Positions 1 to 14,206 are shown, numbered from the stretch's first letter. The stretch is DNA of 14,206 bases from a virus (IMGVR_UViG_2609459844_000009:1-14206), one strand, 5' to 3'. The notes: generated by a model not told the origin, from the letters alone. Made by a program: numbers and translations.

Positions 1-1155
1 ATGCTCACCGTTAAGCAGATTGAAGCAGCAAAGCCGAAAGAAAAACCATACCGCCTTCTCGATGGTAATGGCCTGTACCTTTATGTTCCTGTATCCGGGA
101 AAAAGGTATGGCAGCTTCGCTACAAGATTGACGGTAAGGAGAAAATCCTGACCGTCGGAAAATATCCGCTAATGACTTTGCAGGAGGCAAGAGATAAAGC
201 ATGGACCGCGAGGAAAGACATCTCGGTTGGCATCGATCCGGTAAAAGCGAAAAAGGCTTCGTCTAACAACAATTCCTTTAGTGCGATTTACAAGGAATGG
301 TACGAGCACAAGAAGCAAGTCTGGTCAGTAGGCTATGCAAACGAACTTGCCAAAATGTTTGACGACGACATTTTACCCATCATCGGCGGCCTTGAAATTC
401 AGGATATTGAGCCGATGCAACTGCTGGAAGTAATCCGCAGATTTGAAGATCGCGGTGCAATGGAGCGAGCCAACAAAGCCCGCAGAAGATGCGGAGAGGT
501 TTTCCGTTACGCTATTGTCACCGGAAGGGCTAAATATAACCCGGCACCTGACCTTGCAGACGCCATGAAAGGATACCGCAAGAAGAACTTCCCGTTTCTT
601 CCTGCAGACCAGATCCCGGCATTCAACAAAGCACTGGCAACATTTTCAGGAAGTATCGTATCGCTTATTGCGACTAAAGTTTTACGCTACACCGCCCTAA
701 GAACGAAAGAACTTCGTTCCATGCTATGGAAGAACGTCGATTTTGAAAACAGGATTATCACCATCGACGCCAGTGTGATGAAGGGTCGCAAGATTCATGT
801 AGTACCGATGTCAGACCAGGTAGTTGAACTTCTCACTACGCTAAGCTCAATCACCAAACCAGTATCAGAGTTTGTTTTTGCCGGGCGCAACGATAAGAAG
901 AAGCCAATCTGCGAGAACGCGGTGCTACTTGTGATCAAACAAATCGGCTATGAGGGTCTGGAAAGCGGTCACGGATTCAGGCATGAATTCAGCACGATTA
1001 TGAACGAGCACGAATGGCCTGCTGATGCTATTGAAGTGCAACTGGCACATGCCAACGGCGGATCTGTGCGCGGGATTTACAACCATGCTCAGTATCTCGA
1101 TAAACGCAGAGAAATGATGCAGTGGTGGGCGGACTGGATTGATGAAAAGGCGTGA
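1..1155 (+). CDS. intS: Tyrosine recombinase, P4-family prophage integrase (IntS-like, argW-targeting)
   Basis: 384-aa ORF starting at window position 1. N-terminal arm-binding region (KQIEAAKPKEKPYRLLDGNGLYLYV) typical of P4-type integrases; C-terminal catalytic signature HGFRHEF ... LAH ... RGIYNHAQY. Recalled as near-identical to E. coli KplE1/CPS-53 IntS. A TorI-like excisionase lies at the opposite end of the element, as in KplE1. Confidence 0.9.
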   Translation: MLTVKQIEAAKPKEKPYRLLDGNGLYLYVPVSGKKVWQLRYKIDGKEKILTVGKYPLMTLQEARDKAWTARKDISVGIDPVKAKKASSNNNSFSAIYKEWYEHKKQVWSVGYANELAKMFDDDILPIIGGLEIQDIEPMQLLEVIRRFEDRGAMERANKARRRCGEVFRYAIVTGRAKYNPAPDLADAMKGYRKKNFPFLPADQIPAFNKALATFSGSIVSLIATKVLRYTALRTKELRSMLWKNVDFENRIITIDASVMKGRKIHVVPMSDQVVELLTTLSSITKPVSEFVFAGRNDKKKPICENAVLLVIKQIGYEGLESGHGFRHEFSTIMNEHEWPADAIEVQLAHANGGSVRGIYNHAQYLDKRREMMQWWADWIDEKA

Positions 1156-1244
1156 TGCTTTCCATCTTTCCATTCGGATTCCTCCTACCAGATTTACCTG
1201 GAGAGTGATATAGTTAATCTTTTAAAAAGTTACATGGGCTTTGC

Positions 1245-3080
1245 ATGTCTTCTAAATTTAGGAATGATATTAATGGGCTAAGGGCTCTAGCGGTCGCAGC
1301 TGTTATTATATATCACTTTAATAGCTCTTATATGTCAAGCGGATTTGCAGGAGTGGATGTTTTTTTTGTTATCTCTGGATACCTGATGACATCCATAATA
1401 GTTAATAAATTCAATGATGGTAATTTCAAGCTTTTTGATTTCTACCTATCCAGAGCAAAAAGAATCATACCATCATTAATAATAGTCTGCTTTGCTCTGT
1501 TGATTTTTGGTTTTTTATTAATAGAACCTGGTACTTATCAGCTAATAGGTAAGCATTCGGCAAGCTCTCTTACATTCATATCAAACTTTACCTATCTATT
1601 TGAATCTGGATATTTCGACCAATCATCCAAAGAAAAGTTTTTGCTGCACACTTGGTCACTATCTGTTGAGTGGCAGTTCTACTTGATTTATCCATTTATA
1701 ATAATATCAATTTCTAAGCTGTTTGGCATAACAAGGCTGCGAGCGGCGCTAGCGTCTCTATCGGTGATTGGATTTATAATTTCTTTAATTATATCAAAAG
1801 AAGATATATCTTTATCTTACTATATGTTTTTTAGCAGAGCATGGGAGATGATAGTAGGTGGAGTTATTTTCTTGCTTCCATCAATAATGACGCAGACAAA
1901 GAGACTGACTTTAGAAATAATAGGGTGCATTGGTATAATATTATCATTTTTTGTTTTTACTGAACAAACGTTATGGCCGGGGACTCCAACTCTAATGCCT
2001 GTAATGTTCACTGCATTGGTTATATATGCTAATAATGAAAAATCAATTCTATCTGCAAGGCCAATTCAATTAATCGGTAAGATATCATATTCTATATACT
2101 TGGTGCATTGGGTAATATTAGTATCATTAAAAAAACTGTATATAGACTTTGGGTTTGCTGCATACCTGATATCAACATTAATGCTATCTTTTGCATTATA
2201 TCACTTTGTTGAAAAAAGGCGTAGCTTTGGGAAAATATGGGTTTATTTGTATGTTTTATGTTTTCTCATTTCGCTGGCCGTCTCCTTGAATGGAGTCAGA
2301 TCGCGAACAAGTGGGTCAGATGATTACAGAATGAGCCTTCAGGAGTTCAGAGACAAGTACGAAGGAAGTGATGGAGTAAAGGATAGCCTCAAACCTATCT
2401 TCTTCAACTCTAACGAAGATGACTTTGAATATATATTAATTGGAAGTAGCCATGCAAAGCACTATTACTCATATATAAAATCAAAAGGTTTGAAAGTGGT
2501 GTCGCTTGCGCTTGATGGGTGTAACTCAACAAAAAACAGGTATACCAACTACCGTCCGGAATCATGCGCCCCTCGCTATGATCAAGTGGTAAAATTCATC
2601 AATGACCATCCTGGCAAAAAGGTAGTTTGGGCTACTTTGTGGACTTGGGTTGGGATCCCTAGAGATAGCTCCAAAAATAATAATGAGAGTACTCTAGATG
2701 TGATAAATGAAGAAGTAACTGCATTTATAGGTGACATTAATAAATCAAATAGTGACATTTATCTTATAGGTGACGTTCCGGGCACTAAGAAACTAACATT
2801 TGAATGCATGGCTAAAAATTCGCTGCCTTTGAATAGATATTTCAATTTGGGCGGATGCAGTGACAAGCAAAAGTATGAGGACGATGGTGTTGATGCAACA
2901 CTATCATCCATAGCTAGAAAATATGATAACGTTCACTTTATAGGGGCTGCAAACTCCTTGTGCTCATCAGGTGAATGCATGTTGATATCTGAAGGTAAAC
3001 CAATTTATACAGATTATGGTCACCTTTCAAAATATGGTGCAAATATAGTCGGAAAGTATATATTCAGTAAAGTTAATTAA
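1245..3080 (+). CDS. O-antigen O-acyltransferase, acyltransferase-3 (AT3) membrane domain fused to C-terminal SGNH domain (OafA/Oac-like)
   Basis: 611-aa ORF. N-terminal AT3 hallmarks (GLRALAVAAVIIYHF with conserved Arg and His; VDVFFVISGY) and many predicted TM helices; C-terminal SGNH-like motifs (ILIGSSHAKHY; DYGHLS near the end). Very AT-rich versus neighbours, no strong SD. Occupies the slot where KplE1 carries gtrABC-like genes and Sf6 carries oac. Confidence 0.85.
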   Translation: MSSKFRNDINGLRALAVAAVIIYHFNSSYMSSGFAGVDVFFVISGYLMTSIIVNKFNDGNFKLFDFYLSRAKRIIPSLIIVCFALLIFGFLLIEPGTYQLIGKHSASSLTFISNFTYLFESGYFDQSSKEKFLLHTWSLSVEWQFYLIYPFIIISISKLFGITRLRAALASLSVIGFIISLIISKEDISLSYYMFFSRAWEMIVGGVIFLLPSIMTQTKRLTLEIIGCIGIILSFFVFTEQTLWPGTPTLMPVMFTALVIYANNEKSILSARPIQLIGKISYSIYLVHWVILVSLKKLYIDFGFAAYLISTLMLSFALYHFVEKRRSFGKIWVYLYVLCFLISLAVSLNGVRSRTSGSDDYRMSLQEFRDKYEGSDGVKDSLKPIFFNSNEDDFEYILIGSSHAKHYYSYIKSKGLKVVSLALDGCNSTKNRYTNYRPESCAPRYDQVVKFINDHPGKKVVWATLWTWVGIPRDSSKNNNESTLDVINEEVTAFIGDINKSNSDIYLIGDVPGTKKLTFECMAKNSLPLNRYFNLGGCSDKQKYEDDGVDATLSSIARKYDNVHFIGAANSLCSSGECMLISEGKPIYTDYGHLSKYGANIVGKYIFSKVN

Positions 3081-3087
3081 ACCAAGA

Positions 3088-3114
3088 CCCCTCAATCCTG
3101 AGGGGCTTTTTTTT
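3088..3114. terminator. Bidirectional rho-independent terminator between convergent acyltransferase and tailspike genes
   Basis: Hairpin CCCCTCA-atcc-TGAGGGG followed by T8 on the + strand; the tailspike stop codon overlaps the T tract on the other strand. Confidence 0.8.
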
Positions 3115-5347
3115 ACGCGGTTAATATCCAGCGCTTATCATAATAATGCATTAATCCTTGTGATGTTATTTTCATATGCACGATTGCTTGAGAAAAAGCG
3201 GCGGCAGCAAAACTTACCCTAAGAAATGTTTGTGAGCCGTTATTGTATTTAGATGTGGTAATGCCGGTTAGGTTTTTACTTCCAGCAATCATATTTGACC
3301 AAACATTACTTGAAGCTAAAGTGGCTTGATCTTTTGCTGATACGCTTACCAATATAACTCCACCGGTCTCACCAGTTCCGCCCAATCCATTCTGATTAAT
3401 TGGCATAATCTTTAACTCTGCTGCGATAAAACCCCCCCCCGTATATGAAGCTTCTTCACCAATCGTTGAAATAAGAATATCAATATTTCTTCCATATGGT
3501 ACCAAAACCGTCGCATCTTCAGTTAATACCTGAGTGTATGTGGCGTTTTTAGCTTGGTGTTTAGCGGAAAGAACCACACCATCAGAACCAGTTCGAAAGC
3601 CGATTCCAGTATGTTCCCCGTAGTATTTACCGTAATAATTTATTCCTCTGACGTCAAATTCTGAAATAGCACTTCCGGTTGTGTTTTTTACGAAAATGAA
3701 CTTATCACCGAAGGTGAAACCTCGGCACTGATATTTATTCGTTGGATCGGCAATGTTTTTAAGAAAGGAAATTCCCTTATAGGCTTTAACGTACCCACTT
3801 TCGAAACGAAAGTTCACAGGACCCTTTTGTTCATTTGCTGGTAATTCAACAAAATGAGTAACCGTGGCTCCGCTAGGGTCCTGAATCCAGCAGGAAATGT
3901 TCTCAACGGTTGCAACTGATTGGCCGTCCTCTTCATTGTAATCTGCAAAATCAAGAGCGTGCGTACCATTTATCCCTTCGATACCCATACCTTTGATAGA
4001 AAGAGAGCGGAATCCATAGAACTTATGAGGTAAAGAACAACCATCTGCAGCAATATTATTTACGGCAACGTACATTAATGGCCCCGGAGCCTTTACAGGT
4101 TCATAGGTTTCTCTATCAATCACAGCCCCCCAAAGATAACCAACACCACATTGCGAAGACCAAATTGCAGAGACATCAGTACTTGTTCCCCATATTGCAA
4201 ATCCGTATGTGCAATCATACATAAAAATATTTTGTATGACGCTGACAAATGGACACGATGGGAGCGCAAATTTATAATGGTAGAAGTCTATATTAGTTAG
4301 CTTCCAGTTCTTTCCGCCACCATACGTGGTGCTAGGACCACTTAGCAAAAGTGGACACCCTGTATATTCAGAGTCAGCGTTTCTGAAACCAATATTTTCA
4401 ATATGTAAATTATGACCCCATGAGGACATGTAAAAACCGCCATTTCCTGACGTATAAATCAAACTCTGCCTCGGGTTATCACCCTTAATATTTAAGGTGA
4501 TGCCTTCCCATCTAAACTGGCTAATGTCAATTTGAGTGTTACCAATATATATAGGCTGGTCTATAAAAATAGGAAGTTTAGTTAGATAAGCTTTATTAAG
4601 TGCTAATCCATCATTTGTTACACCTGTTAAATCGACGCCACCCATGCTTGGCGCTTTTGGGTAAGGCGTTCCCTGAATAGTACTTCCATCAATATAAGGA
4701 GCATCCATCCACGCTCCAAACATACGTGGTGTTACGTACCCCTTACCTTGAAGATCACGTTTCCAGCGTTTACCACCCACAGTGACAATGACCATGCCGT
4801 TATCATCTGCAGAAGTAGAATCTGTGAAATCGGCCACAAACAGACCACCACCAGTATCGCCTGATACTGTCGGCTTCATGCCTGTGGTGTGGAAGTCGAC
4901 GAAAATCTTTTGCTGATCTCGCTCAGGCTCAATTGTCCTTAACATTGCTATATCAGGGCATGTCCCGATGTATTTAAGACCGTCTTCCCCTGATAGAGAT
5001 ACTTTAAGCTGATCAGGATCATATTTAAGAACATTCGGAAAATAGAACTGCTGTGCACCATATGCATCATAAACAGCCATAGAATGGCCTTGCACAGTTA
5101 CGAATTTAGCAATCTGCCCATTATATACCGGATATCCAGCGGCGTTAATGATGATTGGTTGCGAAACAGGAATGTGAGAGCCATCTTCGTTCTCCACATA
5201 AACCTGAATCTGGTTTTCAGGATTTACCGGGTCAGTGTCAATTTTACCGATATAAATTTTGCCATTGGCTACGGCTTTAAAAGAACGAGCCATAGTGAAG
5301 AGTTGCGATGGCATACTCACTACAACATTGGCTGTAATGTCTGTCAT
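3113..5347 (-). CDS. Tailspike protein: P22 gp9-like N-terminal head-binding domain with divergent receptor-binding/enzymatic body
   Basis: 744-aa ORF. First ~110 residues ([11 protein letters not shown] ... [33 protein letters not shown] ... [12 protein letters not shown] ... NVLKYDPDQ) closely match the recalled P22 gp9 head-binding domain; the rest is unrelated to P22 gp9 by eye and Gly/Thr/Asn-rich as expected for a beta-helix. SD GGAG ~9 nt upstream of ATG. Confidence 0.85.
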
Positions 5348-5483
5348 TTAATTTGCTCCAGATGCAAGGAATCGCCGCAGCATGGCTACGGTTGGTATTT
5401 GTTTGGTTTTTGAACTACGAAAATTTCGTAGTGCTATCCATCAAGGCCATCGCCGCTTAGTTGCTGCGGTGAATTTTGGGCAT

Positions 5484-5506
5484 AAAAAAACCCAGCCGAA
5501 GCTGGG
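5484..5506 (-). terminator. Rho-independent terminator downstream of ant (minus strand)
   Basis: On the minus strand: CCCAGC-ttcg-GCTGGG followed by T7. Lies between the ant stop and the tailspike start, like the terminator after ant in the P22 immI operon. Confidence 0.75.
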
Positions 5507-5525
5507 TCGTTGCGTTGGTTATCTG

Positions 5526-6428
5526 TCAGTAGTTATGTACTGAAGGAGGTAATTCTTTATTCTTAAGTCTCATCCATGCGGAAAGATTCGTTGGTCCGTC
5601 TGGCTCATTGATATCAACATCTCGTGAGTGATTGATTAAAACGTCTCTCGCTATATCGATAATACGGGAGAACTCATAACCGCAGTCATGACATCTGCCG
5701 GAATAGTTCGATTGAATTTGTTTCAGCGCCGGATACAGTTCGCGGAATAATGCCTGTGAACGGTTAGCATAATCCCATAGCCATACAAGGCTGTTTGCTT
5801 CTTTTTCAGAAAGCTCGTTGGTTTTCTTCTCTTGTTTGCCGATGAACTCGCCTTCAAGCACTACCCTGTGGATGTACTCTACGGCTTGCGGTATCTGAGA
5901 TGCATCAAGCTCTTCAATACTTTCCACATTGAAACGCTGATGAATCATTGCATAAGCTTCTGGGTACATTAGATGCTTTTTGCTGACCAGCATATTTACA
6001 GCATCACGAAGCGGAGTCCTGTCATCAACAGATGTTTTCTTACGTGCATTTTCTGCCTTTCCCTTTGTCCAGTAGTCATGCAGCACAGTAAAGCATTCTT
6101 CCTGGTACTGAATCAGTTTATCGCGGATGTCAGCACGAACTTTCTCAGGGTTGATGCTGAACAGCCATCCATTTAACTTCTTCAAAGGAAGGCAGAGTAG
6201 CTTACGAAGCTTACCATCAGCGGCAACCATATTCATATGAATACAGTTGAACTTATCTAGTTGTTTCATAAGTTTTTGTTGCTGAGTACCCCAGCTCATT
6301 CCGAGGTTTTCAACGATTGGCTTCATCGCAACATATGCAACTCCGGCAGCCATGGCGGTGATAATCTGCTGACCATTGAAAGGCACGTAAGAGGTGTTCA
6401 CTGCTTCTAAAATTGCTATACTATTCAT
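5526..6428 (-). CDS. ant: Antirepressor Ant (P22 immI-type)
   Basis: Start chosen at the internal ATG ([22 protein letters not shown]...) preceded by GGAGA; 300 aa, the length of P22 Ant. Position (arc ... ant, then tailspike, same strand) matches P22 immI. The ORF-track start at 6458 is a TTG without an SD. Confidence 0.8.
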
Positions 6429-6490
6429 GTTGGTTTTTCTCCAAGGATTTACCGACAACCGAAGCCCTGACTGTTACCGCAGTTGGGGCT

Positions 6491-6760
6491 TCAACGTTTT
6501 TCCACTTCATTTTGAATTTGCTTAAGTAGCATATTTGTCTCGTCAAGCCTCTTGTTAATACGGTCAAGGCTTTCTACTAAATCGTTATGTGCATGTGATA
6601 CTTCGTAATTTGAGACTGATTTCTTTTCCTCTATCGTCTTTGTCAATCGTTCCCCTGATTGATACATATTGATTAACGATGTAAAAATCACGAGCAAGCA
6701 AACTACAATGATTGCGCCAGACAAAAATTGTAAAGAACGATCAAGCAATGACACCTTCAT
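6491..6760 (-). CDS. Small membrane-anchored coiled-coil protein, function unknown (inserted between arc and ant)
   Basis: 89 aa with one N-terminal hydrophobic helix (LQFLSGAIIVVCLLVIFTSLI) then a charged helical region. Start ATG overlaps the arc stop (ATGA) and is preceded by GAGGGG, indicating translational coupling to arc. P22 has no gene at this position as far as I recall. Confidence 0.65.
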   Translation of the reverse strand: MKVSLLDRSLQFLSGAIIVVCLLVIFTSLINMYQSGERLTKTIEEKKSVSNYEVSHAHNDLVESLDRINKRLDETNMLLKQIQNEVEKR

Positions 6761-6909
6761 ACCGTAATCCCCTCTCTCTTCAGACTGTCCAGCAATCGCT
6801 TAATCACTTCCGAGTTAAACGACCGGCATTCTTCTTTGGCCTTTCCTGTAATCGCATCTTTTAGCGACTGAGGCATTCTCACCAAAATTCTGCTAACTTC
6901 TTTTTCCAT
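6757..6909 (-). CDS. arc: Arc-like ribbon-helix-helix repressor
   Basis: 50 aa from the internal ATG (MEKEVSRILVRMPQSLKDAITGKAKEECRSFNSEVIKRLLDSLKREGITV); aligns with recalled P22 Arc (RxPxxLxDxxxxxAxEExRSxNSE ... KxEG). Divergent from mnt. Confidence 0.8.
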   Translation of the reverse strand: MEKEVSRILVRMPQSLKDAITGKAKEECRSFNSEVIKRLLDSLKREGITV

Positions 6910-7018
6910 ATCGCCACCACGTGAGTTATTGTGAATCACAAACATATCACCGTGACTATATCAAGTCAAAATTTTTTTGAATACACTGTGATATCAATGT
7001 GATTATCACGGTGTAAGT
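6910..7018. promoter_or_regulatory. immI divergent promoter/operator region between arc and mnt
   Basis: Contains CACGTG (6917-6922), TGTGAATCACA (6930-6940), ATCACCGTGAC (6946-6956) and its inverted partner ATCACGGTGTA (7005-7015), and the perfect palindrome TGATATCA (6988-6995). The CACCGTG/CACGGTG core resembles the centre of the recalled P22 Mnt operator (CCACGGTGG). Confidence 0.6.
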
Positions 7019-7273
7019 ATGACGAAGGTTAGAGACATAGCCCCATATAGCGTAAGAATGCCAGATAGCCTCAAGCGCGACCTGACCATAAGAGCATCGA
7101 AAAACGGACGCTCATTAAATTCAGAAATAGTTATGATCTTGCAAGCTGCTATTGATGAAGAAAAATCACCAAGATCAATAGAAGGTTTTGCTCAACAAGA
7201 ATCTGAAAAATTTAGGGAGGCTCTTCTTAAGACTCTCAGCAGCATGTACGGAGAAGATAAAAAACCCACCTGA
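7019..7273 (+). CDS. mnt: Mnt-like ribbon-helix-helix repressor
   Basis: 84 aa; N-terminal RMPDSLKRDLTIRASKNGRSLNSEIV matches the recalled P22 Mnt RHH motif (RMPxxxxxxLxxRAxxNGRSxNSE). Divergent from arc. Confidence 0.8.
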   Translation: MTKVRDIAPYSVRMPDSLKRDLTIRASKNGRSLNSEIVMILQAAIDEEKSPRSIEGFAQQESEKFREALLKTLSSMYGEDKKPT

Positions 7274-7285
7274 CGGTGGGTTTTT
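7259..7285. terminator. Bidirectional rho-independent terminator shared by mnt and the convergent 330-aa gene
   Basis: A6 - CCCACC-tgac-GGTGGG - T5; the mnt stop codon lies in the loop and the stop of the minus-strand gene (7287) abuts the T tract. Confidence 0.8.
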
Positions 7286-7286
7286 C

Positions 7287-8279
7287 TTATTCTTTATCTT
7301 TTAAGTCTATGGTTCTTTGCCCAATAACCTTTTCATCTATGTATTTCTCATACTCTTCTCGAGTATCAGAAACCATTGCAATACCAGTAACCTTACCTAT
7401 TTGGGTTCTAAGAGCCTTAACTCCAACCTCTGATAAAAACTGGTGTATTTTATCGTTTTTGCTGCCTTTCTCTTCTTTTGAAGTTTTTGCTAAATTAAAT
7501 ACCTTTCCTTCACTTCTGGCTAATGGGTAATAAATGTGATCTATCGTAAGATATTTAAACGCCCATGGTCGCCCTCTAACTGGTTTGTCTATACCATACA
7601 AACGATACCAATGCTCATAAAGTTCAGGGGTGAACTCTCTTTCATACTCACGAGCCTCTTCAGCAACATATCGCTTATATGCTTGAATTACCTCTTCTTT
7701 TGTTCTGTCATACCCTGCCAAAGCATAAACAAGCCCCTGAATGCCCGCCTTGGCTGATGCATCAATAATGATTCTGGCTTGCTTAGCAATCCCTTCCTGA
7801 CTGGAAAGCAACTTACCTTCAGCTTTAGCATTAGAGATTGCTCGACATAAATCAATTAATATTGTTACATCGTAGCCATGTATTACAGGATTAGCTGGAG
7901 TGTTCGTGCCCGCCTGTTTGTATTGAAAAATAAGAGGATTTTCAAGTTTTGCCCTTAATTCATGCCCAATATACTGAGAAATAGTTTTCCCCTGAATAAA
8001 CTTTGGCAACCTGCTGCCACCTTCGCCAAGACCAATCGCTTCTCCCATGCCTCTCTGGCTAATAACGGCAGTTTTGTTATCATCATTTAACACATAGCAC
8101 TCAACATCAATCCCGAATTCATGCTGGAACGATCCCTTATGCGTGGCAATTAATGGTTTATCCTTCCATCTTGCAGCCGCTGCTTTCTTTGCTATTTCAG
8201 AACGCTGCTCTTTAGTCAGCGACTTTGCGCGAGCGATCCCGCCCTTAGCTTTCCCTTCACTACTTTTCTTTTCTGTCAT
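7287..8279 (-). CDS. Hypothetical protein with Lys/Ala-rich basic N-terminal tail; unknown function, possible DNA-binding regulator or exclusion/defence factor
   Basis: 330-aa ORF (MTEKKSSEGKAKGGIARAKSLTKEQRSEIAKKAAAARWKDK...). AGGTG ~9 nt upstream of ATG; TTGCTT-18 bp-TATAAT sigma70-like promoter on the minus strand (+ strand 8312-8341). AT-rich relative to early genes. I could not assign a family; there is a vague resemblance to phage Bro-N/P63C-type regions that I cannot substantiate. Confidence 0.75.
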   Translation of the reverse strand: MTEKKSSEGKAKGGIARAKSLTKEQRSEIAKKAAAARWKDKPLIATHKGSFQHEFGIDVECYVLNDDNKTAVISQRGMGEAIGLGEGGSRLPKFIQGKTISQYIGHELRAKLENPLIFQYKQAGTNTPANPVIHGYDVTILIDLCRAISNAKAEGKLLSSQEGIAKQARIIIDASAKAGIQGLVYALAGYDRTKEEVIQAYKRYVAEEAREYEREFTPELYEHWYRLYGIDKPVRGRPWAFKYLTIDHIYYPLARSEGKVFNLAKTSKEEKGSKNDKIHQFLSEVGVKALRTQIGKVTGIAMVSDTREEYEKYIDEKVIGQRTIDLKDKE

Positions 8280-8434
8280 AATGCAAGCACCTTGTTGTGA
8301 TATATGCTTGCATTATATACACTGTACACACATACAAGCAAGCATAAAAACAAAACAAAATGCTTGCATTACAACCGCGCTACTCCAACTACACATTATC
8401 ATCTGGTATCCTGCACAAAACTAAGGAGGTTGGT
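8280..8434. promoter_or_regulatory. Divergent promoter region with four copies of the 10-bp palindrome ATGC(AA/TT)GCAT (putative operator array)
   Basis: Sites at 8281-8290 (ATGCAAGCAc), 8304-8313 (ATGCTTGCAT), 8336-8345 (AAGCAAGCAT) and 8360-8369 (ATGCTTGCAT); centre-to-centre spacings ~23, 32 and 24 bp. They overlap the RBS/start, -10 and -35 of the 330-aa gene's predicted promoter. Confidence 0.6.
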
Positions 8435-8764
8435 GTGCTTGAATGGTTTCTGTTGGCTGCATTAGTCGTTTCTGGTTTGGTGTATGAGTATCGAATGCAC
8501 TCTCTAACAAAAAAAATAGGAATTCTAGAAAACGAATATTGTGCTCTCAAATCCTCACTGGAACGTGAGCAAGGGGACTTAAAAATCTCTCTGTCTAGCA
8601 TTGAGCGTTCTATAGAGAGCTTAGAGGATAAGGTTGATCGTATAAAGAATGAGGATATTCATGATATTAAGGACGACATATCCTTCTTAAAATCTTGGTT
8701 GAAAAATGTTGGGAAAATTGCCACATCAACACGAGATAAGCTCAATCCATCCATGGATGACTAA
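8435..8764 (+). CDS. Small membrane-anchored coiled-coil protein, function unknown
   Basis: GTG start 5 nt after a perfect AGGAGG SD (8424-8429); ~109 aa with N-terminal hydrophobic helix (LEWFLLAALVVSGLVY) then a charged heptad-like helical region. AT-rich. The upstream ATG at 8360 lies inside operator site 4 with no SD, so I prefer the GTG. Confidence 0.55.
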   Translation: MLEWFLLAALVVSGLVYEYRMHSLTKKIGILENEYCALKSSLEREQGDLKISLSSIERSIESLEDKVDRIKNEDIHDIKDDISFLKSWLKNVGKIATSTRDKLNPSMDD

Positions 8765-9016
8765 TTACTCCTGTGCCATTCCGCTTAGCGATGCCACAAT
8801 TCCAGCTCTTGCTAAACGCTGGAACTCTTCGTTTCCTAGTGCCTCGCGTATTGCTTTTACGGCGGCCTTATTTGCCATAAATCTGCGTTCCGCCGCCGCT
8901 AATGCACCATCACTTGCCCCAACCTTAACTGCCTTTGTTGCCTCTTGAACAGCCTTTTCAATAGCGTAACGACCGCTTCTAGTTGCGGATAATTTCGCTA
9001 TCGCTCCTTTTGCCAT
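8765..9016 (-). CDS. Ala-rich small ORF, possibly the C-terminal remnant of a larger (late/ejection-type?) gene
   Basis: 83 aa from the first ATG, but the frame stays open upstream to ~9142 with no start codon and no convincing SD, suggesting a 5'-truncated remnant. Its stop codon abuts the stop of the convergent gene at 8764. Confidence 0.3.
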   Translation of the reverse strand: MAKGAIAKLSATRSGRYAIEKAVQEATKAVKVGASDGALAAAERRFMANKAAVKAIREALGNEEFQRLARAGIVASLSGMAQE

Positions 9017-9061
9017 TGCATCAATTGCCCCACCTGCAGCGCCAACGGGCCATACGCGCCA

Positions 9062-9556
9062 GTTATTTCTATTGGGGCAGTATTCTTTGACCCGAATACC
9101 GGAGAAACAGGAGAAGAGTTCTCGGTAAATATCTCGCTTGAGTCATCAATGCGATATCGGGCGCGTCCTGACGCTTCAACGATTTTATGGTGGCTGGAAC
9201 AGAGTGAAGAAGCCAGAAAATCGCTAACCAGCAACACTCAGGAGCTTTCAACGGCTCTTTCATGGTTATCTGAATTCATCATAAAGAACGCTAACCACAA
9301 ATTCGTTCAGGTTTGGGGGAATGGAGCATCATTTGACTGCGTTATTCTCCGCAACAGTTATTCGCTGACAGGGCAGCCAGTTCCGTGGCAGTGGTGGAAT
9401 GACCGCGACGTAAGAACAATCGTCGAACTTGGGAAGGTAATAGGATTCGACCCTAAGCGAGATATGCCATTCAAAGGAACTCGCCACAACGCGCTTGATG
9501 ATGCCATTCACCAAGCCAAATACGTTTCAGCGATCTGGAAAAAGTTAGCTAAATAA
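9062..9556 (+). pseudogene. DnaQ/DEDD-like 3'-5' exonuclease (Rv2179c-like phage exoribonuclease family), 5'-truncated
   Basis: Frame is open from 8903; first ATG at 9149. Translation from ~9062 (VISIGAVFFDPNTGETGEEFSVNI ... WWLEQSEEARKSL ... VQVWGNGASFDCVILRNS ... GTRHNALDDAIHQAKYV) matches this family as I recall it, including the motif III H-x4-D. The expected N-terminal DxE motif (I.D.ET.G) is absent in all three forward frames upstream. Confidence 0.5.
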
Positions 9557-9572
9557 TCAACAGGAGAAAACC

Positions 9573-9866
9573 ATGCCAGCGCCTCTGTATGGTGCGGATG
9601 ACGCGCGCCGCTGTTCCGGCAATTCCGTATCGGAGGTGCTGGATAAATTCAGAAGAAACTACGATCGGATAATGTCGCTACCACAGGAAACGAAAGAGGA
9701 AAAGGAATTTCGCCACTGTATATGGCTTGCAGAGAAAGAAGAACGCGAGCGAATTTACCAGACATCAATCCGACCATTCCGCAAAGCCACATATACCCAC
9801 TTCCCTGAAATTGACCCGCGCCTGCGTAATTACCGCTCACGCTATGGCGCTATCAGTAATGACTGA
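9573..9866 (+). CDS. Hypothetical phage early-region protein
   Basis: 97-aa ORF with GGAGA SD 7 nt upstream of ATG; tightly packed same-strand gene array. Confidence 0.6.
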   Translation: MPAPLYGADDARRCSGNSVSEVLDKFRRNYDRIMSLPQETKEEKEFRHCIWLAEKEERERIYQTSIRPFRKATYTHFPEIDPRLRNYRSRYGAISND

Positions 9867-9876
9867 GGAATTAACA

Positions 9877-10167
9877 ATGAAAACAATGAAGCTAAACATC
9901 GACCTCGGCAAATACGTTATTACCGGAACCAAACACGACCTGATTCTTAATGAAAGAGGAATTATCAAAGAAGGTGAGAATGCAGGGAAAGAAACACTAA
10001 GCCGTATCGGTTATTACAGCAAGTTTGAGCATCTGGTCAAAGAGTTATGCAACCGTGAAATCCTGTTATCTCAGGCGCAGACGCTACAGGATATTCAGCA
10101 GCATATCGAAACTTTAGGTATGTCACTTAGCATGGCTATTGACCAGTTCGTTGAGAGTAAATCATGA
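9877..10167 (+). CDS. Hypothetical phage early-region protein
   Basis: ATG ([13 protein letters not shown]...) 6 nt after GAGGAA, immediately after the upstream stop; the longer ORF-track start at 9727 overlaps the previous gene and is less likely. Confidence 0.6.
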
Positions 10168-10331
10168 GAGGACTTGCATACAATCCCGGCATTCTTCCGG
10201 CAGAAATGATTATTCGCCAACGCGTAAAGCCAATGCCATCGAGAGAGGAATTGCTTAAAAGAAAGAGTTTCGGTTCTGTTAATGACAACAAATATCTGAA
10301 TGCTATGTGGCGCAAAGGAGGCAACCAGTGA
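10164..10331 (+). CDS. Small hypothetical protein (55 aa)
   Basis: ATG overlaps the upstream stop (ATGA) and its own stop overlaps the next gene's GTG start (GTGA), suggesting translational coupling. Below the ORF-track size cutoff. Confidence 0.4.
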
Positions 10332-10582
10332 GTAATTCAGCACGACTACAGCTTGGTTTTTCACCGCTATCAAAAACTATCATGCTGGCAAAAATGCGCG
10401 ATGTTGAAGGTGGACGTATGCGCGTTGGCAATGATCCAGGTCGTGATGTTACCAATGAGGCTGCTCAATTGGTGTGGCGACTGGTCATGGCTGAAGGTGG
10501 TGAGATCGCGCGGGAGCTGGATGATGGTTCTCGCATGGTGTTGAAGGCAGAAAAGCAGGAGGCAACCAGTGAGCCAGATTGA
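10328..10582 (+). CDS. Hypothetical phage early-region protein
   Basis: GTG start 6 nt after AGGAGG; the same 17-nt SD-plus-start block (AGGAGGCAACCAGTGAG) recurs at the start of the next gene. Confidence 0.55.
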
Positions 10583-11012
10583 TTATCAGGCACTGCGTGC
10601 TAAGGCAGAAAAAGCAACGTGTGGCGAGTGGTCGCTCGAATATGGAGAGGGCCGATTTGATGGTGATGATGCGCTAATTCATCGCGAGGCTGCTGGATAT
10701 ATTCCTATTTGCAGAATTGAAGGAGCGCATCCAGAAAGCGGTTTCGATGAAGATTTCCAAATGGAACAGCAGGCCAATGCTGAATTCATCGCCGCAGCCA
10801 ATCCGGCTACCGTGCTGACACTGCTGGACGAGCTGGAAGCAGCAAAAAAGCGCATTGCAGAACTGGAAGCACGGGAAATATCGCTCCCAGAACGTAGCAG
10901 CATGCTTCATCGAACAGATTTTCACGAGGATTACCAAACGGTAATGGCATACAAAGTTTCTGAGGTCATCGCTGCAATCCGCGCCGCTGGCATTCGCATC
11001 AAAGGAGAGTGA
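10569..11012 (+). CDS. Ead/Ea22-like early protein
   Basis: 147 aa; GTG start after AGGAGG. Contains the AANPATVL.LLDELEAA...RIAELE segment that I recall as characteristic of Ead/Ea22-like proteins of lambdoid and P22-like prophages. Confidence 0.55.
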   Translation: MSQIDYQALRAKAEKATCGEWSLEYGEGRFDGDDALIHREAAGYIPICRIEGAHPESGFDEDFQMEQQANAEFIAAANPATVLTLLDELEAAKKRIAELEAREISLPERSSMLHRTDFHEDYQTVMAYKVSEVIAAIRAAGIRIKGE

Positions 11013-11013
11013 G

Positions 11014-11205
11014 ATGAACGGACAAATCTCAATTGTTCGACCGGGAGCATGTGACGATCGCGAGATACGAATGATTATTCGTCTGGCGATGGGGAAAACA
11101 ATAACAGCTCTCATTACTCCAGAAAATCTCGCATTAGCTTTAACCGGAAAGTCAGACCTGCCAGTGGAGCTAAAACTGCGAAATGTTGAGATTAAGGTGA
11201 AATAG
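11014..11205 (+). CDS. Small hypothetical protein (63 aa)
   Basis: ATG 1 nt after the upstream stop; fills the gap in the same-strand operon. Confidence 0.45.
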   Translation: MNGQISIVRPGACDDREIRMIIRLAMGKTITALITPENLALALTGKSDLPVELKLRNVEIKVK

Positions 11206-11207
11206 CC

Positions 11208-11822
11208 ATGACCACTATTACCAAAGAACGTATTGAATTGTTCATTAAAGATCCGCTTGAAAACGGGCTTACTCGTGGCGAACAAATGGAACTGGCACGA
11301 ATTGCACTGGCATCACTGGAACGCGAACAGATTCGCCACGAGCATGCCAAATGGTCTGACTCCACATTTGGCTGCGTTGGCCCCATTGGTCCGCTGAAAC
11401 ATCTCTCAAAAGAGGCTCTGGAAGCCGCAGCCGAACCTGACGATCTCAGCGAGTGGGCTGATATGCAGTTCCTGTTGTGGGATGCACAGCGCCGTGCTGG
11501 TATCAGTGATGCTGAAATTACCGCTGCTATGGAAGATAAATTGAAGATCAACATGAAGCGCCAGTGGCCTGAACCAAAAGATGGTGAGCCTCGCTTGCAC
11601 ATTAAAGAACCCGGCAACTCTCCGGTAACTCCGGATGGTTGGATAAGCTGTAGTGAGCGAATGCCAAGCGAAGAAGATGTTTTGGTTTATTGCTCAGACA
11701 CAAAAGAGCAGATGGTAGGGTTTCACAAAGGTAAAGGGTTATTTCAATTCTTTTACATGAATGGTGTTGAGGGGGTATGTGAGCCGTCACACTGGATGCC
11801 GCTACCAGAGCCTCCACTTTGA
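11208..11822 (+). CDS. DUF550/DUF551-type prophage protein (MazG-like dATP/dGTP pyrophosphohydrolase-type N-terminal region, DUF551 C-terminus)
   Basis: 204 aa; the C-terminus (...CEPSHWMPLPEPPL) matches the recalled DUF551 ending (HWMPLPEPP); the N-terminal region resembles the DUF550 module often fused to it. Confidence 0.5.
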   Translation: MTTITKERIELFIKDPLENGLTRGEQMELARIALASLEREQIRHEHAKWSDSTFGCVGPIGPLKHLSKEALEAAAEPDDLSEWADMQFLLWDAQRRAGISDAEITAAMEDKLKINMKRQWPEPKDGEPRLHIKEPGNSPVTPDGWISCSERMPSEEDVLVYCSDTKEQMVGFHKGKGLFQFFYMNGVEGVCEPSHWMPLPEPPL

Positions 11823-11919
11823 AAGCGAAGCTTATACATATCTTTTACATCAGCAATCTATTGTTAATCTCCAATCAATGTTACGTTGTCATCTCACTCA
11901 TGCTTTGGAGGTAGTGATA

Positions 11920-12098
11920 TGTCTTGTCCAAAATGCGGTTCTGGAAATATTGCAAAAGAAAAAACAATGCGTGGATGGTCTGGTGATTATGTGTGCTGCG
12001 ATTGCGGATACAACGACTCTAAAGACGCATTTGGAGAGCGTGGTAAAAACGAGTTTGTTAAAATTAATAAAGAACGCGAAGGCAACGAAAAAAGCTAA
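11920..12098 (+). CDS. Small zinc-ribbon protein
   Basis: 59 aa from the ATG 7 nt after GGAGG (MSCPKCGSGNIAKEK ... CCDCGYND): two Cys pairs in C-x2-C ... C-x-C arrangement. The longer track ORF (11886) lacks an SD. Confidence 0.55.
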
Positions 12099-12163
12099 TT
12101 TATTTATTCATATATTAAAACAATGTAACCAATATTCGAATTGAAGAACTGAAAGAACACCAA

Positions 12164-12184
12164 GCCGCCTGATGGCGGTTTTTT
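12164..12184 (+). terminator. Rho-independent terminator ending the early-gene array
   Basis: GCCGCC-tgat-GGCGG followed by T6. Confidence 0.7.
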
Positions 12185-12194
12185 ATTGCCTGAT

Positions 12195-12210
12195 TTGCAG
12201 GTTCGATTCC
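12195..12210 (+). other. tRNA-Arg (argW) T-arm-derived 16-nt fragment just upstream of torI
   Basis: TTGCAGGTTCGATTCC matches the T-stem/T-loop part of E. coli argW as I recall it (...AATTGCAGGTTCGATTCCTGCAGGGGACACCA); similarity ends at 12211. Confidence 0.5.
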
Positions 12211-12229
12211 CTATTCGGAGATAGCACTC

Positions 12230-12430
12230 ATGCAACACGAACTACAACCTGATTCACTGGTTGATTTGAAATTCATCATGGCTGATACTGGCTTCGGTAA
12301 GACCTTCATCTATGACCGGATTAAGTCCGGCGACCTGCCAAAAGCCAAAGTTATCCACGGGCGAGCAAGATGGTTATATCGTGACCATTGTGAATTCAAA
12401 AATAAGCTCTTAAGCCGCGCCAATGGGTAA
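12230..12430 (+). CDS. torI: Excisionase / recombination directionality factor, TorI-like (AlpA/Xis family winged-helix)
   Basis: 66 aa (MQHELQPDSLVDLKFIMADTGFGKTFIYDRIKSGDLPKAKVIHGRARWLYRDHCEFKNKLLSRANG), recalled as matching KplE1 TorI. It sits at the opposite end of the prophage from int and next to the att remnant, as in KplE1. Confidence 0.8.
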   Translation: MQHELQPDSLVDLKFIMADTGFGKTFIYDRIKSGDLPKAKVIHGRARWLYRDHCEFKNKLLSRANG

Positions 12431-12503
12431 AATAGCGGGTAAAATATTTCTCACATCTAAAAAACACCATTCCAATCAATCCCCTGCTGCTTCAAGTAGA
12501 TGT

Positions 12504-12518
12504 CTGCAGGGGACACCA
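12504..12518 (+). other. argW 3'-terminal fragment (…CTGCAGGGGACACCA): candidate attR core / right prophage boundary
   Basis: Exact 15-nt match to the recalled 3' end of tRNA-Arg argW including the CCA end, with no upstream tRNA body; non-coding host-like DNA follows. Confidence 0.6.
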
Positions 12519-12958: not shown

Positions 12959-14206
12959 CTATATTGCTGAAGGTACAGGCGTTTCCATAACTATTTGCTC
13001 GCGTTTTTTACTCAAGAAGAAAATGCCAAATAGCAACATCAGGCAGACAATACCCGAAATTGCGAAGAAAACTGTCTGGTAGCCTGCGTGGTCAAAGAGT
13101 ATCCCAGTCGGCGTTGAAAGCAGCACAATCCCAAGCGAACTGGCAATTTGAAAACCAATCAGAAAGATCGTCGACGACAGGCGCTTATCAAAATTTGCCA
13201 CGCTGTATTTGAAGACGGATATGACACAAAGTGGAACCTCAATAGCATGTAACAGCTTCACTAATGAAATAATCCAGGGGTTAACGAACAGCGCGCAGGA
13301 AAGGATACGCAACGCCATAATCACAACACCGATAAGTAATGCATTTTTTGGCCCTACCCGATTCACAAAGAAAGGAATAATCGCCATGCATAGCGCTTCG
13401 AGTACCACCTGGAATGAGTTGAGATAACCATACAGGCGCGTTCCTACATCGTGTGATTCGAATAAACCTGCATAAAAGACAGGAAAAAGTTGTTGATCAA
13501 AAATGTTATAGAAAGACCACGTCCCCACAATAAATATGACGAAAACCCAGAAGTTTCGATCCTTGAAAACTGCGATAAAATCCTCTTTTTTTACCCCTCC
13601 CGCATCCGCCGCTACGCACTGGTGATCCTTATCTTTAAAACACATGTTGATCATCATAAATACAGCGCCAAATAGCGAGACCAACCAGAAGTTGATATGG
13701 GGACTGATACTAAAAAATATGCCGGCAAAGAACGCGCCAATAGCATAGCCAAAAGATCCCCAGGCGCGCGCTGTTCCATATTCGAAATGAAAATTTCGCG
13801 CCATTTTTTCGGTGAAGCTGTCAAGCAAACCGCATCCCGCCAGATACCCCAGGCCAAAAAAGAGCGCCCCCAGAATTAGACCTACAGAAAAATTGCTTTG
13901 CAGTAACGGTTCATAAACGTAAATCATAAACGGTCCGGTCAAGACCAGGATGAAACTCATACACCAGATGAGCGGTTTCTTCAGACCGAGTTTATCCTGA
14001 ACGATGCCGTAGAACATCATAAATAGAATGCTGGTAAACTGGTTGACCGAATAAAGTGTACCTAATTCCGTCCCTGTCAACCCTAGATGTCCTTTCAGCC
14101 AAATAGCGTATAACGACCACCACAGCGACCAGGAAATAAAAAAGAGAAATGAGTAACTGGATGCAAAACGATAGTACGCATTTCTGAATGGAATATTCAG
14201 TGCCAT
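12959..14206 (-). CDS. cscB: Sucrose:H+ symporter, LacY-family MFS permease (CscB)
   Basis: 415-aa ORF with 12-TM MFS architecture; N-terminus (MALNIPFRNAYYRFASSYSFLFFISWSLWWSLYAIWLKGHLGL) recalled as E. coli CscB. The csc locus is known to lie next to argW in sucrose-positive E. coli. The window ends exactly at its start codon. Confidence 0.85.
   Translation of the reverse strand: MALNIPFRNAYYRFASSYSFLFFISWSLWWSLYAIWLKGHLGLTGTELGTLYSVNQFTSILFMMFYGIVQDKLGLKKPLIWCMSFILVLTGPFMIYVYEPLLQSNFSVGLILGALFFGLGYLAGCGLLDSFTEKMARNFHFEYGTARAWGSFGYAIGAFFAGIFFSISPHINFWLVSLFGAVFMMINMCFKDKDHQCVAADAGGVKKEDFIAVFKDRNFWVFVIFIVGTWSFYNIFDQQLFPVFYAGLFESHDVGTRLYGYLNSFQVVLEALCMAIIPFFVNRVGPKNALLIGVVIMALRILSCALFVNPWIISLVKLLHAIEVPLCVISVFKYSVANFDKRLSSTIFLIGFQIASSLGIVLLSTPTGILFDHAGYQTVFFAISGIVCLMLLFGIFFLSKKREQIVMETPVPSAI

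Follow-up and report, generated by a model that had tools for sequence, protein, structure and literature searches.

Gene content and boundaries of the element

The window, i.e. the whole 14.2 kb (14,206 nt) stretch of DNA analysed here, begins at the start codon of a gene for an intS-type integrase and ends with the sucrose permease gene cscB. Outside its immI module, the following features were identified (positions are those of the window):

1–1155, plus strand: intS integrase gene, left end of the element
1245–3080: AT3-SGNH O-acetyltransferase gene, left arm
3113–5347, minus strand: intact tailspike gene (744 aa; Pfam P22 Head_binding domain)
5489–5508, minus strand: terminator-like hairpin in the interval between ant and the tailspike gene (pattern scan)
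7287–8279, minus strand: gene for a P63C-domain protein, left arm
8360–8764: small membrane/coiled-coil ORF, overlapping an epsilon34 gene annotated as a homologue of HK620 hkcB
8765–9044, minus strand: final ~92 codons of gene 16, left as a remnant (DNA transfer protein; phrog_770)
9043–9045: deletion junction with a 2 bp overlap, placed by the homology limits of both arms
9045–9556, plus strand: 3′–5′ exonuclease gene (Rv2179c-like domain) lacking its first ~12 codons
Right arm, 3′ of the exonuclease gene: abc2 (anti-RecBCD) and DUF5405, DUF2737, DUF7446 and Ead/Ea22 genes
Right arm, further on: dATP/dGTP pyrophosphohydrolase-DUF551 gene and a zinc-ribbon ORF
12230–12430, plus strand: torI/xis-type excisionase gene (66 aa), right end
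12504–12518: attR core CTGCAGGGGACACCA, matching the 3′ end of argW with one mismatch
12959–14206, minus strand: cscB, sucrose permease gene

The att repeats were missed by a 12-mer search and were recovered from a 9-mer seed as a 15 nt core with one mismatch, the counterpart of the attR core being the 3′ end of tRNA-Arg(CCU), located 162–176 nt upstream of the window start on the source contig. The argW tRNA gene lies directly upstream of intS in GCA_000703525.1, and homology to an intact relative (L012) stops at position 12518, which is also the end of the attR core. For the torI assignment, the syntenic 66 aa gene directly before cscB carries a torI annotation in relatives. The match of the att core to the argW 3′ end indicates that the element is an argW-integrated remnant of ~12.7 kb, which by its sequence derives from a P22-like (Lederbergvirus) prophage of Escherichia coli. 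The same site is used by vB_EcoP-611R6 (611R6). The defective argW prophage KplE1/CPS-53 of E. coli K-12 has the same integrase/excisionase pair (intS...torI) at its two ends; this K-12 remnant contains gtr and tail-fibre-assembly genes and is not known to carry immI. The hairpin at 5489–5508 occupies a place equivalent to that of an annotated terminator in epsilon34.

Organization of the immI module

The region between the tailspike gene and the P63C gene was found to contain a compact set of genes with homology to the immI module of P22:

5526–6428, minus strand: ant, P22-type antirepressor gene, 300 aa, full length (Pfam P22_AR_N and P22_AR_C)
6429–6496, plus strand: sar antisense RNA (Rfam RF00262)
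6491–6760, minus strand: 89 aa ORF in the interval between arc and sar/ant (phrog_27312, E=6.5e-61, unknown function)
6757–6909, minus strand: arc-like gene, ribbon-helix-helix repressor, 50 aa (Pfam Arc, E=5.6e-11)
7019–7273, plus strand: mnt-like repressor gene of 84 aa, transcribed divergently to arc and ant (Pfam matches: Arc, FitA-like RHH)
7260–7285, plus strand: terminator hairpin after mnt (pattern scan)

Domain and homology evidence confirmed the original prediction that three immI genes, ant and its arc-like and mnt-like companions, are present at full length, each where it had been placed. Both domains of Ant score above the Pfam cut-off, and the protein is, in ungapped comparison, 85% identical to Ant of P22, 95% to that of epsilon34 and 99% to that of vB_EcoP-611R6; an identical Ant is also encoded by the prophages of GCA_016857025.1 and ERR3328380. 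The mechanically called ORF begins at an upstream TTG, giving an end at 6458, and the ATG equivalent to that of P22 is located at 6428.

The sar RNA matches the full Rfam model (93.6 bits, gathering score 43; E=2.4e-19) and is complementary to the ant ribosome-binding site. It begins one base past the ATG of ant, an arrangement also seen in P22. It is preceded by a −10 element (TATACT, 6417–6422) and is predicted to fold into two hairpins (−32.4 kcal/mol, z=−5.5), with its terminator at 6461–6492. This RNA had not been listed in the original prediction, although it lies within the coordinates covered.

The Arc-like protein shares 39% identity with P22 Arc over 38 aa, and its gene is the first of the ant operon, so that homology and position both assign it to immI. 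PGAP annotates arc at 50 aa in every relative. A longer form of 62 aa, extending to 6945, was rejected, as it would have to start within the −10 element of the promoter (Pant-like) described below. The Mnt-like protein aligns along its whole length with P22 Mnt (33% identity; E=1e-13) and has 1mnt as its best match among solved structures (PDB). It gave no match to the Mnt C-terminal model of Pfam (PF11423), and tetramer formation by this protein is therefore something that we can only infer.

In the DNA-contacting β-strands, the Arc-like and Mnt-like proteins carry RILVRM and PYSVRM, respectively, compared with QFNLRW and HFNFRM in P22. As these residues differ from those of P22, another operator specificity is expected, and the Arc/Mnt pair, as judged from its sequence, is expected to represent an uncharacterised immI immunity specificity, distinct from that of P22, with candidate operators that can be tested directly. 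The arc-mnt type of the window was found in only four phage records.

Promoters and candidate operators between arc and mnt

The 109 bp spacer between arc and mnt, which was scanned for dyads, contains a promoter-like sequence and several symmetrical elements:

6941–6969, minus strand: Pant-like promoter, TTGACT-17 nt-TATGTT, with TG before the −10 (pattern scan)
6929–6941: perfect 13 bp dyad TTGTGAATCACAA over the predicted start of Pant, equivalent in position to P22 Omnt
6947–6955: dyad TCACCGTGA within the spacer of Pant, equivalent in position to P22 Oarc
6982–7015: 34 bp inverted repeat TACACTGTGATA-N10-TATCACGGTGTA, 92% complementary, with inner dyads, over a putative Pmnt

The motif GTGAT/ATCAC is present in five copies in this 109 bp, against 0.34 expected (P=3e-5), and the summed dyad arms of the spacer exceed those of 99% of shuffled sequences and of 97.6% of other 109 bp windows. 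The operator palindromes put forward in the original prediction correspond to these dyads, whose content is significant. These dyads are candidate Mnt/Arc operators by analogy with P22, and we infer from position only which of the two proteins would bind which dyad; in sequence, none of the spacer dyads resembles P22 Omnt or Oarc. The −35 hexamer of the Pant-like promoter is invariant across seven relatives. A second arc-mnt subtype, observed in EC.P3, S.Kent 1-2-1, 400660 and SW070919, retains this −35 and the central TGATATCA, with the other dyads altered.

Comparison with the immI regions of related phages

The module of the window has the same genes, order and orientation as immI of P22, and is inserted at the same site, between gene 16 and the tailspike gene. 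Its sar sequence and the ribosome-binding site of ant hardly differ from those of P22, and the putative divergent promoters, as in P22, have a dyad within the spacer of Pant and another at its start. Differences from P22 comprise the diverged Arc and Mnt proteins, the unrelated operators, the additional 89 aa ORF and the lack of immC in cis.

Gene content and order also match those of epsilon34 immI, and the ant-sar stretch is 95% identical to that phage. In P22-like phages, gene 16 and the tailspike gene are separated by a block of variable content, described for epsilon34 as the 'ant moron', which often combines immI with unrelated small genes (PMC2629481); the extra small genes in the window are the hkcB-like and P63C genes, and the arc/mnt type and cargo ORFs differ from those of the epsilon34 moron. 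Phage 611R6 and the prophage of E. coli VR50 share the argW site with the window, as do the prophages of GCA_016857025.1 and ERR3328380, and are 99.6% identical to it across the arc-mnt region. The 611R6 record is complete (~46 kb) and includes immC, with cI, cro, cII, N, O and Q; it differs from the window in its tailspike and in the ORF found between arc and ant.

A fifth locus with an identical Ant (L005) has as neighbours a P22-type Arc of 53 aa and an Mnt that matches PF11423, and its homology to the window stops at 6499, at the sar 3′ end. The combination of a shared ant-sar unit with another arc-mnt unit indicates that the two units recombine independently of each other.

A central deletion separates immI from immC

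In agreement with the original prediction, Pfam, PHROG and tblastn searches of the window were all negative for a cI/c2-type repressor or cro. Domain and family searches of every sizeable ORF between int and attR returned no cI/C2, Cro or cII protein, and tblastn with ten cI/C2, Cro, cII and N proteins of three immunity types gave a best E-value of 0.084.

Relatives were taken from the five places at which an exact-sequence look-up located the Ant protein. GCA_000703525.1 is 100% identical to the whole window, and a contig of SRR1186618, a second and independent read-set assembly, is 100% identical over positions 1–11655, junction included. GCA_016857025.1 and ERR3328380 carry the same arm of int, acetylase, tailspike, immI and P63C genes, followed by a full gene 16 (710 aa) and, beyond it, by gene 20, gene 7, tail accessory and coat genes; these two prophages are known here from the head-side neighbours of their immI arm. 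Across positions 1–9044, they differ from the window by one base, at 3821 in the tailspike gene, and across 5526–7273 by none.

The gene 16 remnant is collinear with the full 710 aa gp16 up to 9044, where left-arm homology ends. Right-arm homology to intact relatives begins at 9043, 35 nt into their 182 aa exonuclease gene, and the right arm (9043–12518) shares 99.8% identity with L012. The last part of gene 16 is thereby fused to an early-left exonuclease gene at codon ~12 of the latter, and both sides of this single junction are collinear with intact relatives, which is the pattern of a prophage with an internal deletion. In these intact relatives and in 611R6, the cI-cro-cII region is located ~4 kb upstream of the exonuclease gene. 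Since homology extends to 9044 on the left and from 9043 on the right, these comparisons show a single deletion of ~30 kb, with a 2 bp overlap, that removed the head, lysis, replication, immC and recombination genes. It is because of this central deletion at 9043–9045 that immC is absent, and on this comparison the immI module is orphaned from immC in a degraded prophage, as had been proposed for the element.

As the source is a draft assembly, the deletion could in principle be an assembly artefact, with the prophage being complete in reality; this is exceedingly unlikely, given that the same junction occurs at 100% identity in the independent SRR1186618 assembly and in GCA_000703525.1, and that the flanks are collinear on a 619 kb contig. 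The window very probably carries a complete P22-type immI module (mnt, Pmnt/Pant, arc, a small cargo ORF, sar and ant) that has been stranded in a freshly made prophage remnant.

Age of the deletion and retention of immI

Retention of the module in a degraded element had been taken in the original prediction to suggest selection, an argument that fails in view of the near-identity of the left arm to intact prophages. One SNP in 9,044 bp, and none in immI, means that the deletion is too recent for decay: the module has simply not had time to be broken, and it owes its survival to a location on the int-proximal arm, which the deletion did not reach. The tailspike gene, whose product has no virion to join, is as intact as immI and provides an internal control for a gene that is intact without use. 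By this sequence comparison, the deletion is very recent, the intactness of the module is what neutrality predicts, and it says nothing on selection. An intact gene in a degraded element is, more generally, no sign of selection until the degradation has been dated, which is settled here by a sibling that differs by one base. A dN/dS analysis of ant was considered and rejected, as the gene is identical in the intact sibling, and the changes that are older date from a time when the phage still worked.

Six other argW remnants without immC were compared with the window. They were ranked by their coverage of the window and are therefore biased toward the same retained parts, so that no frequency is drawn from them and they do not constitute a decisive test of selection. 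In this biased sample, ant, arc and mnt are kept in four of the six (Survcare253, Z0117EC0133, B4103-1 and strain 124), which could be a hint of retention. The O104:H4 2009EL-2050 remnant has lost everything beyond the tailspike gene, immI included, at an IS1, and 1EC187 retains the tailspike gene with only the C-terminal two-thirds of ant. All seven remnants, the window counted, keep int and the tailspike gene. Their deletions are central and nested, with differing endpoints, and this loss from the centre implies that retention follows position.

These observations bear on the possibility that selection maintains the orphan Ant for an effect in trans on other lambdoid prophages of the host, which it would induce or whose induction it would couple. 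We consider this very unlikely for the present element: several independent argW remnants do contain intact ant, arc and mnt, but others have lost or truncated immI and yet keep the tailspike gene, which in the window is no less intact than the module. With the module identical to that of intact prophages, and a single difference over 9 kb, selection has had no time to act, and the exact remnant was found in 0 of 5,426 complete E. coli genomes.

Predicted working of the orphaned module

In P22, Mnt represses Pant in the prophage state, Arc lowers Pant and Pmnt after a burst, sar blocks ant translation, and Ant binds the immC repressor non-covalently (PMC2629481, PMC7380047, PMC11016777). By analogy, the Mnt homologue of the window would be made constitutively and bind the dyad at the Pant start, with arc, the 89 aa ORF and ant staying off. 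If Pant were to fire, the Arc homologue would turn it down again and the sar RNA would block translation of ant. Any Ant that was made would be predicted to bind C2/cI-type repressors, which, as there is no immC in cis, it could find only in trans.

The expected state of the remnant, on the P22 model, is Mnt on and Ant off, with no SOS input visible: a search for LexA boxes (CTGT-N8-ACAG, at most one mismatch) returned four sites in the window, a count not above chance, and none is located within 1 kb of immI. In lysogens of Kapi1, a P22-like phage of E. coli, mnt transcripts were not detected (PMC12922286), so that the 'Mnt on, Ant off' rule of P22 may not carry over in every detail.

P22 Ant is reported to be active on the repressors of L, lambda and 21, and Lemire et al. 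have already suggested that P22 induction may be coupled to that of other prophages via Ant (PMC3121763). As Ant of the window is 85% identical to P22 Ant, its activity in trans on C2/cI-type repressors is plausible and may fairly be predicted. Both the identity and the reported range, together with the proposal of Lemire et al., would also favour selection on the orphan Ant, against which stand the intact Mnt homologue and the lack of a visible LexA box or other inducing input at the module.

Antirepressor-mediated cross-induction between Salmonella prophages, cited as a precedent in the original prediction, has indeed been described, with the Gifsy/Fels antirepressors acting on repressors encoded elsewhere (Lemire 2011; PMC3121763). 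The precedent holds for small, LexA-controlled, Tum-like antirepressors and not for P22-type Ant, as these are not P22_AR-domain proteins under Mnt/Arc/sar control; SOS-controlled antirepressors of the Tum/Gifsy type have a LexA box upstream, unlike immI of the window. Rem, encoded on the cryptic prophage Qin, relieves DicA repression within Qin (PMC10448788); this antirepressor likewise has no P22_AR domain and is not under Mnt/Arc/sar control.

Mnt rather than Ant might be the functional part, in an immI immunity exerted in trans by which it would repress Pant of superinfecting phages of the same type, and so shield resident prophages from induction by Ant or bias the lysis-lysogeny decision of the incoming phage. 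P22 Mnt is indeed a prophage-expressed maintenance repressor of ant, deletion of immI alters lysogeny frequency in P22 (PMC11016777), and sibling phages with identical operators circulate (GCA_016857025.1, ERR3328380, 611R6 and VR50). Expression of mnt in the remnant is, however, an assumption, one that the Kapi1 lysogens do not encourage (PMC12922286), and the recency of the deletion applies equally here, so that the sequence gives no sign of selection; this role for Mnt is accordingly held to be highly doubtful.

Orphan Mnt/Arc/sar/Ant cassettes, which recur at argW, could be pictured as a host-resident switch acting on prophages, with features resembling addiction or abortive infection and with Mnt also silencing the Ant of siblings, although we regard this as improbable. 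If true, once Mnt was lost or titrated away, as might happen on superinfection by a phage with the same operators, a broad-range Ant would be free to induce resident lambdoid prophages. Siblings entering the cell would have their Ant silenced by Mnt in trans, and the variable ORF of the arc-ant slot would be cargo released together with Ant. The preferred reading, that of a complete module recently stranded by deletion, has little importance beyond annotation. The occurrence of orphan immI cassettes in several E. coli argW remnants raises the question of whether antirepressor-repressor pairs outlive their phages.

A variable ORF between arc and ant

The ATG of the 89 aa ORF overlaps the arc stop codon (ATGA), and the deduced protein consists of one N-terminal hydrophobic helix followed by a charged, coiled-coil-like tail. 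Searches of PHROGs, PADLOC, NCBIfam and a large protein database returned only 'unknown function' families for this ORF, as they did for the P63C protein and the hkcB-like ORF. Its matches comprise only eight protein clusters, all from E. coli. The ORF was absent from the original prediction, though it lies inside the coordinates given there. The slot that it occupies is empty in P22 and epsilon34, and elsewhere holds a different ORF of 73 aa (611R6 and SW070919), one of 63 aa (P393-F10) or one of 80 aa (B4103-1).

Variable cargo between arc and ant

The slot between arc and sar/ant was found to be a variable cargo site, with occupants differing among relatives and consisting of mutually unrelated small ORFs, each of which starts at the arc stop codon:

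Window 6491-6760, minus strand: 89-aa ORF of no known function, with one hydrophobic helix and a coiled-coil-like tail
L001 6966-7187: 73-aa ORF, as in 611R6 and SW070919
L027 (P393-F10) 1166-1357: 63-aa ORF
L021 (argW remnant of B4103-1) 4605-4847: 80-aa ORF

In contrast, this slot is empty in both P22 and epsilon34. An Ant protein identical to that of the window is encoded by L005 (9429-10903), another prophage at a different site, where its neighbours are a 53-aa Arc of the P22 type and an Mnt matching PF11423. Similarity between L005 and the window (5442-6499) stops precisely at the 3' end of sar, suggesting that a recombination boundary lies at the sar terminator.

Genes flanking the immI module

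Two genes occupy the position that is held by sieA in P22:

7287-8279, minus strand: 330-aa P63C-domain protein
8360-8764, plus strand: membrane/coiled-coil ORF, overlapping a gene that is annotated in epsilon34 as a homologue of hkcB

Neither was matched by PADLOC or NCBIfam, and where cI/Cro queries aligned with the P63C protein (residues ~72-105), the similarity was insignificant (E about 0.6-0.8). Both genes may have exclusion or regulatory roles.

The left arm encodes a likely pair for O-antigen recognition and modification:

1245-3080, plus strand: AT3-SGNH O-acetyltransferase, adjoining the tailspike gene
3113-5347, minus strand: 744-aa tailspike, with a conserved head-binding N-terminus

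No close match to the receptor-binding part of the tailspike was present among the phage relatives fetched (611R6, P22, epsilon34 and L005). The sole SNP relative to the intact sibling prophages (position 3821) is located within the tailspike gene.

Deletion junction, excision and other argW remnants

The exonuclease gene (within 9020-9556, plus strand) lacks its first ~12 codons, which were lost at the deletion junction. Its frame is open upstream to 9020, within gene-16 antisense sequence, and contains no canonical start ahead of the ATG at 9149; despite this, a 178-aa chimeric product was reported by one gene caller.

Att core repeats of 15 nt, with one mismatch, are located at 12504-12518 and, as observed in L006 (GCA_000703525.1, 100% match to the window), 162-176 nt upstream of position 1. 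As intS and torI are also intact, the 12.7-kb remnant may still be able to excise. Excision of the KplE1 remnant has been described.

All six independent argW remnants (L017, L018, L019, L020, L021 and L022, from six E. coli genomes) have kept int, the tailspike gene and torI. Their internal deletion endpoints differ, being represented by needle joined to exo, DUF2824 joined to the ssb side, IS1 after the tailspike gene, a position inside ant, and multiple fragments. The recurrent pattern among these remnants, in which the centre is lost and both ends are kept, is possibly of interest for an unbiased survey of argW.
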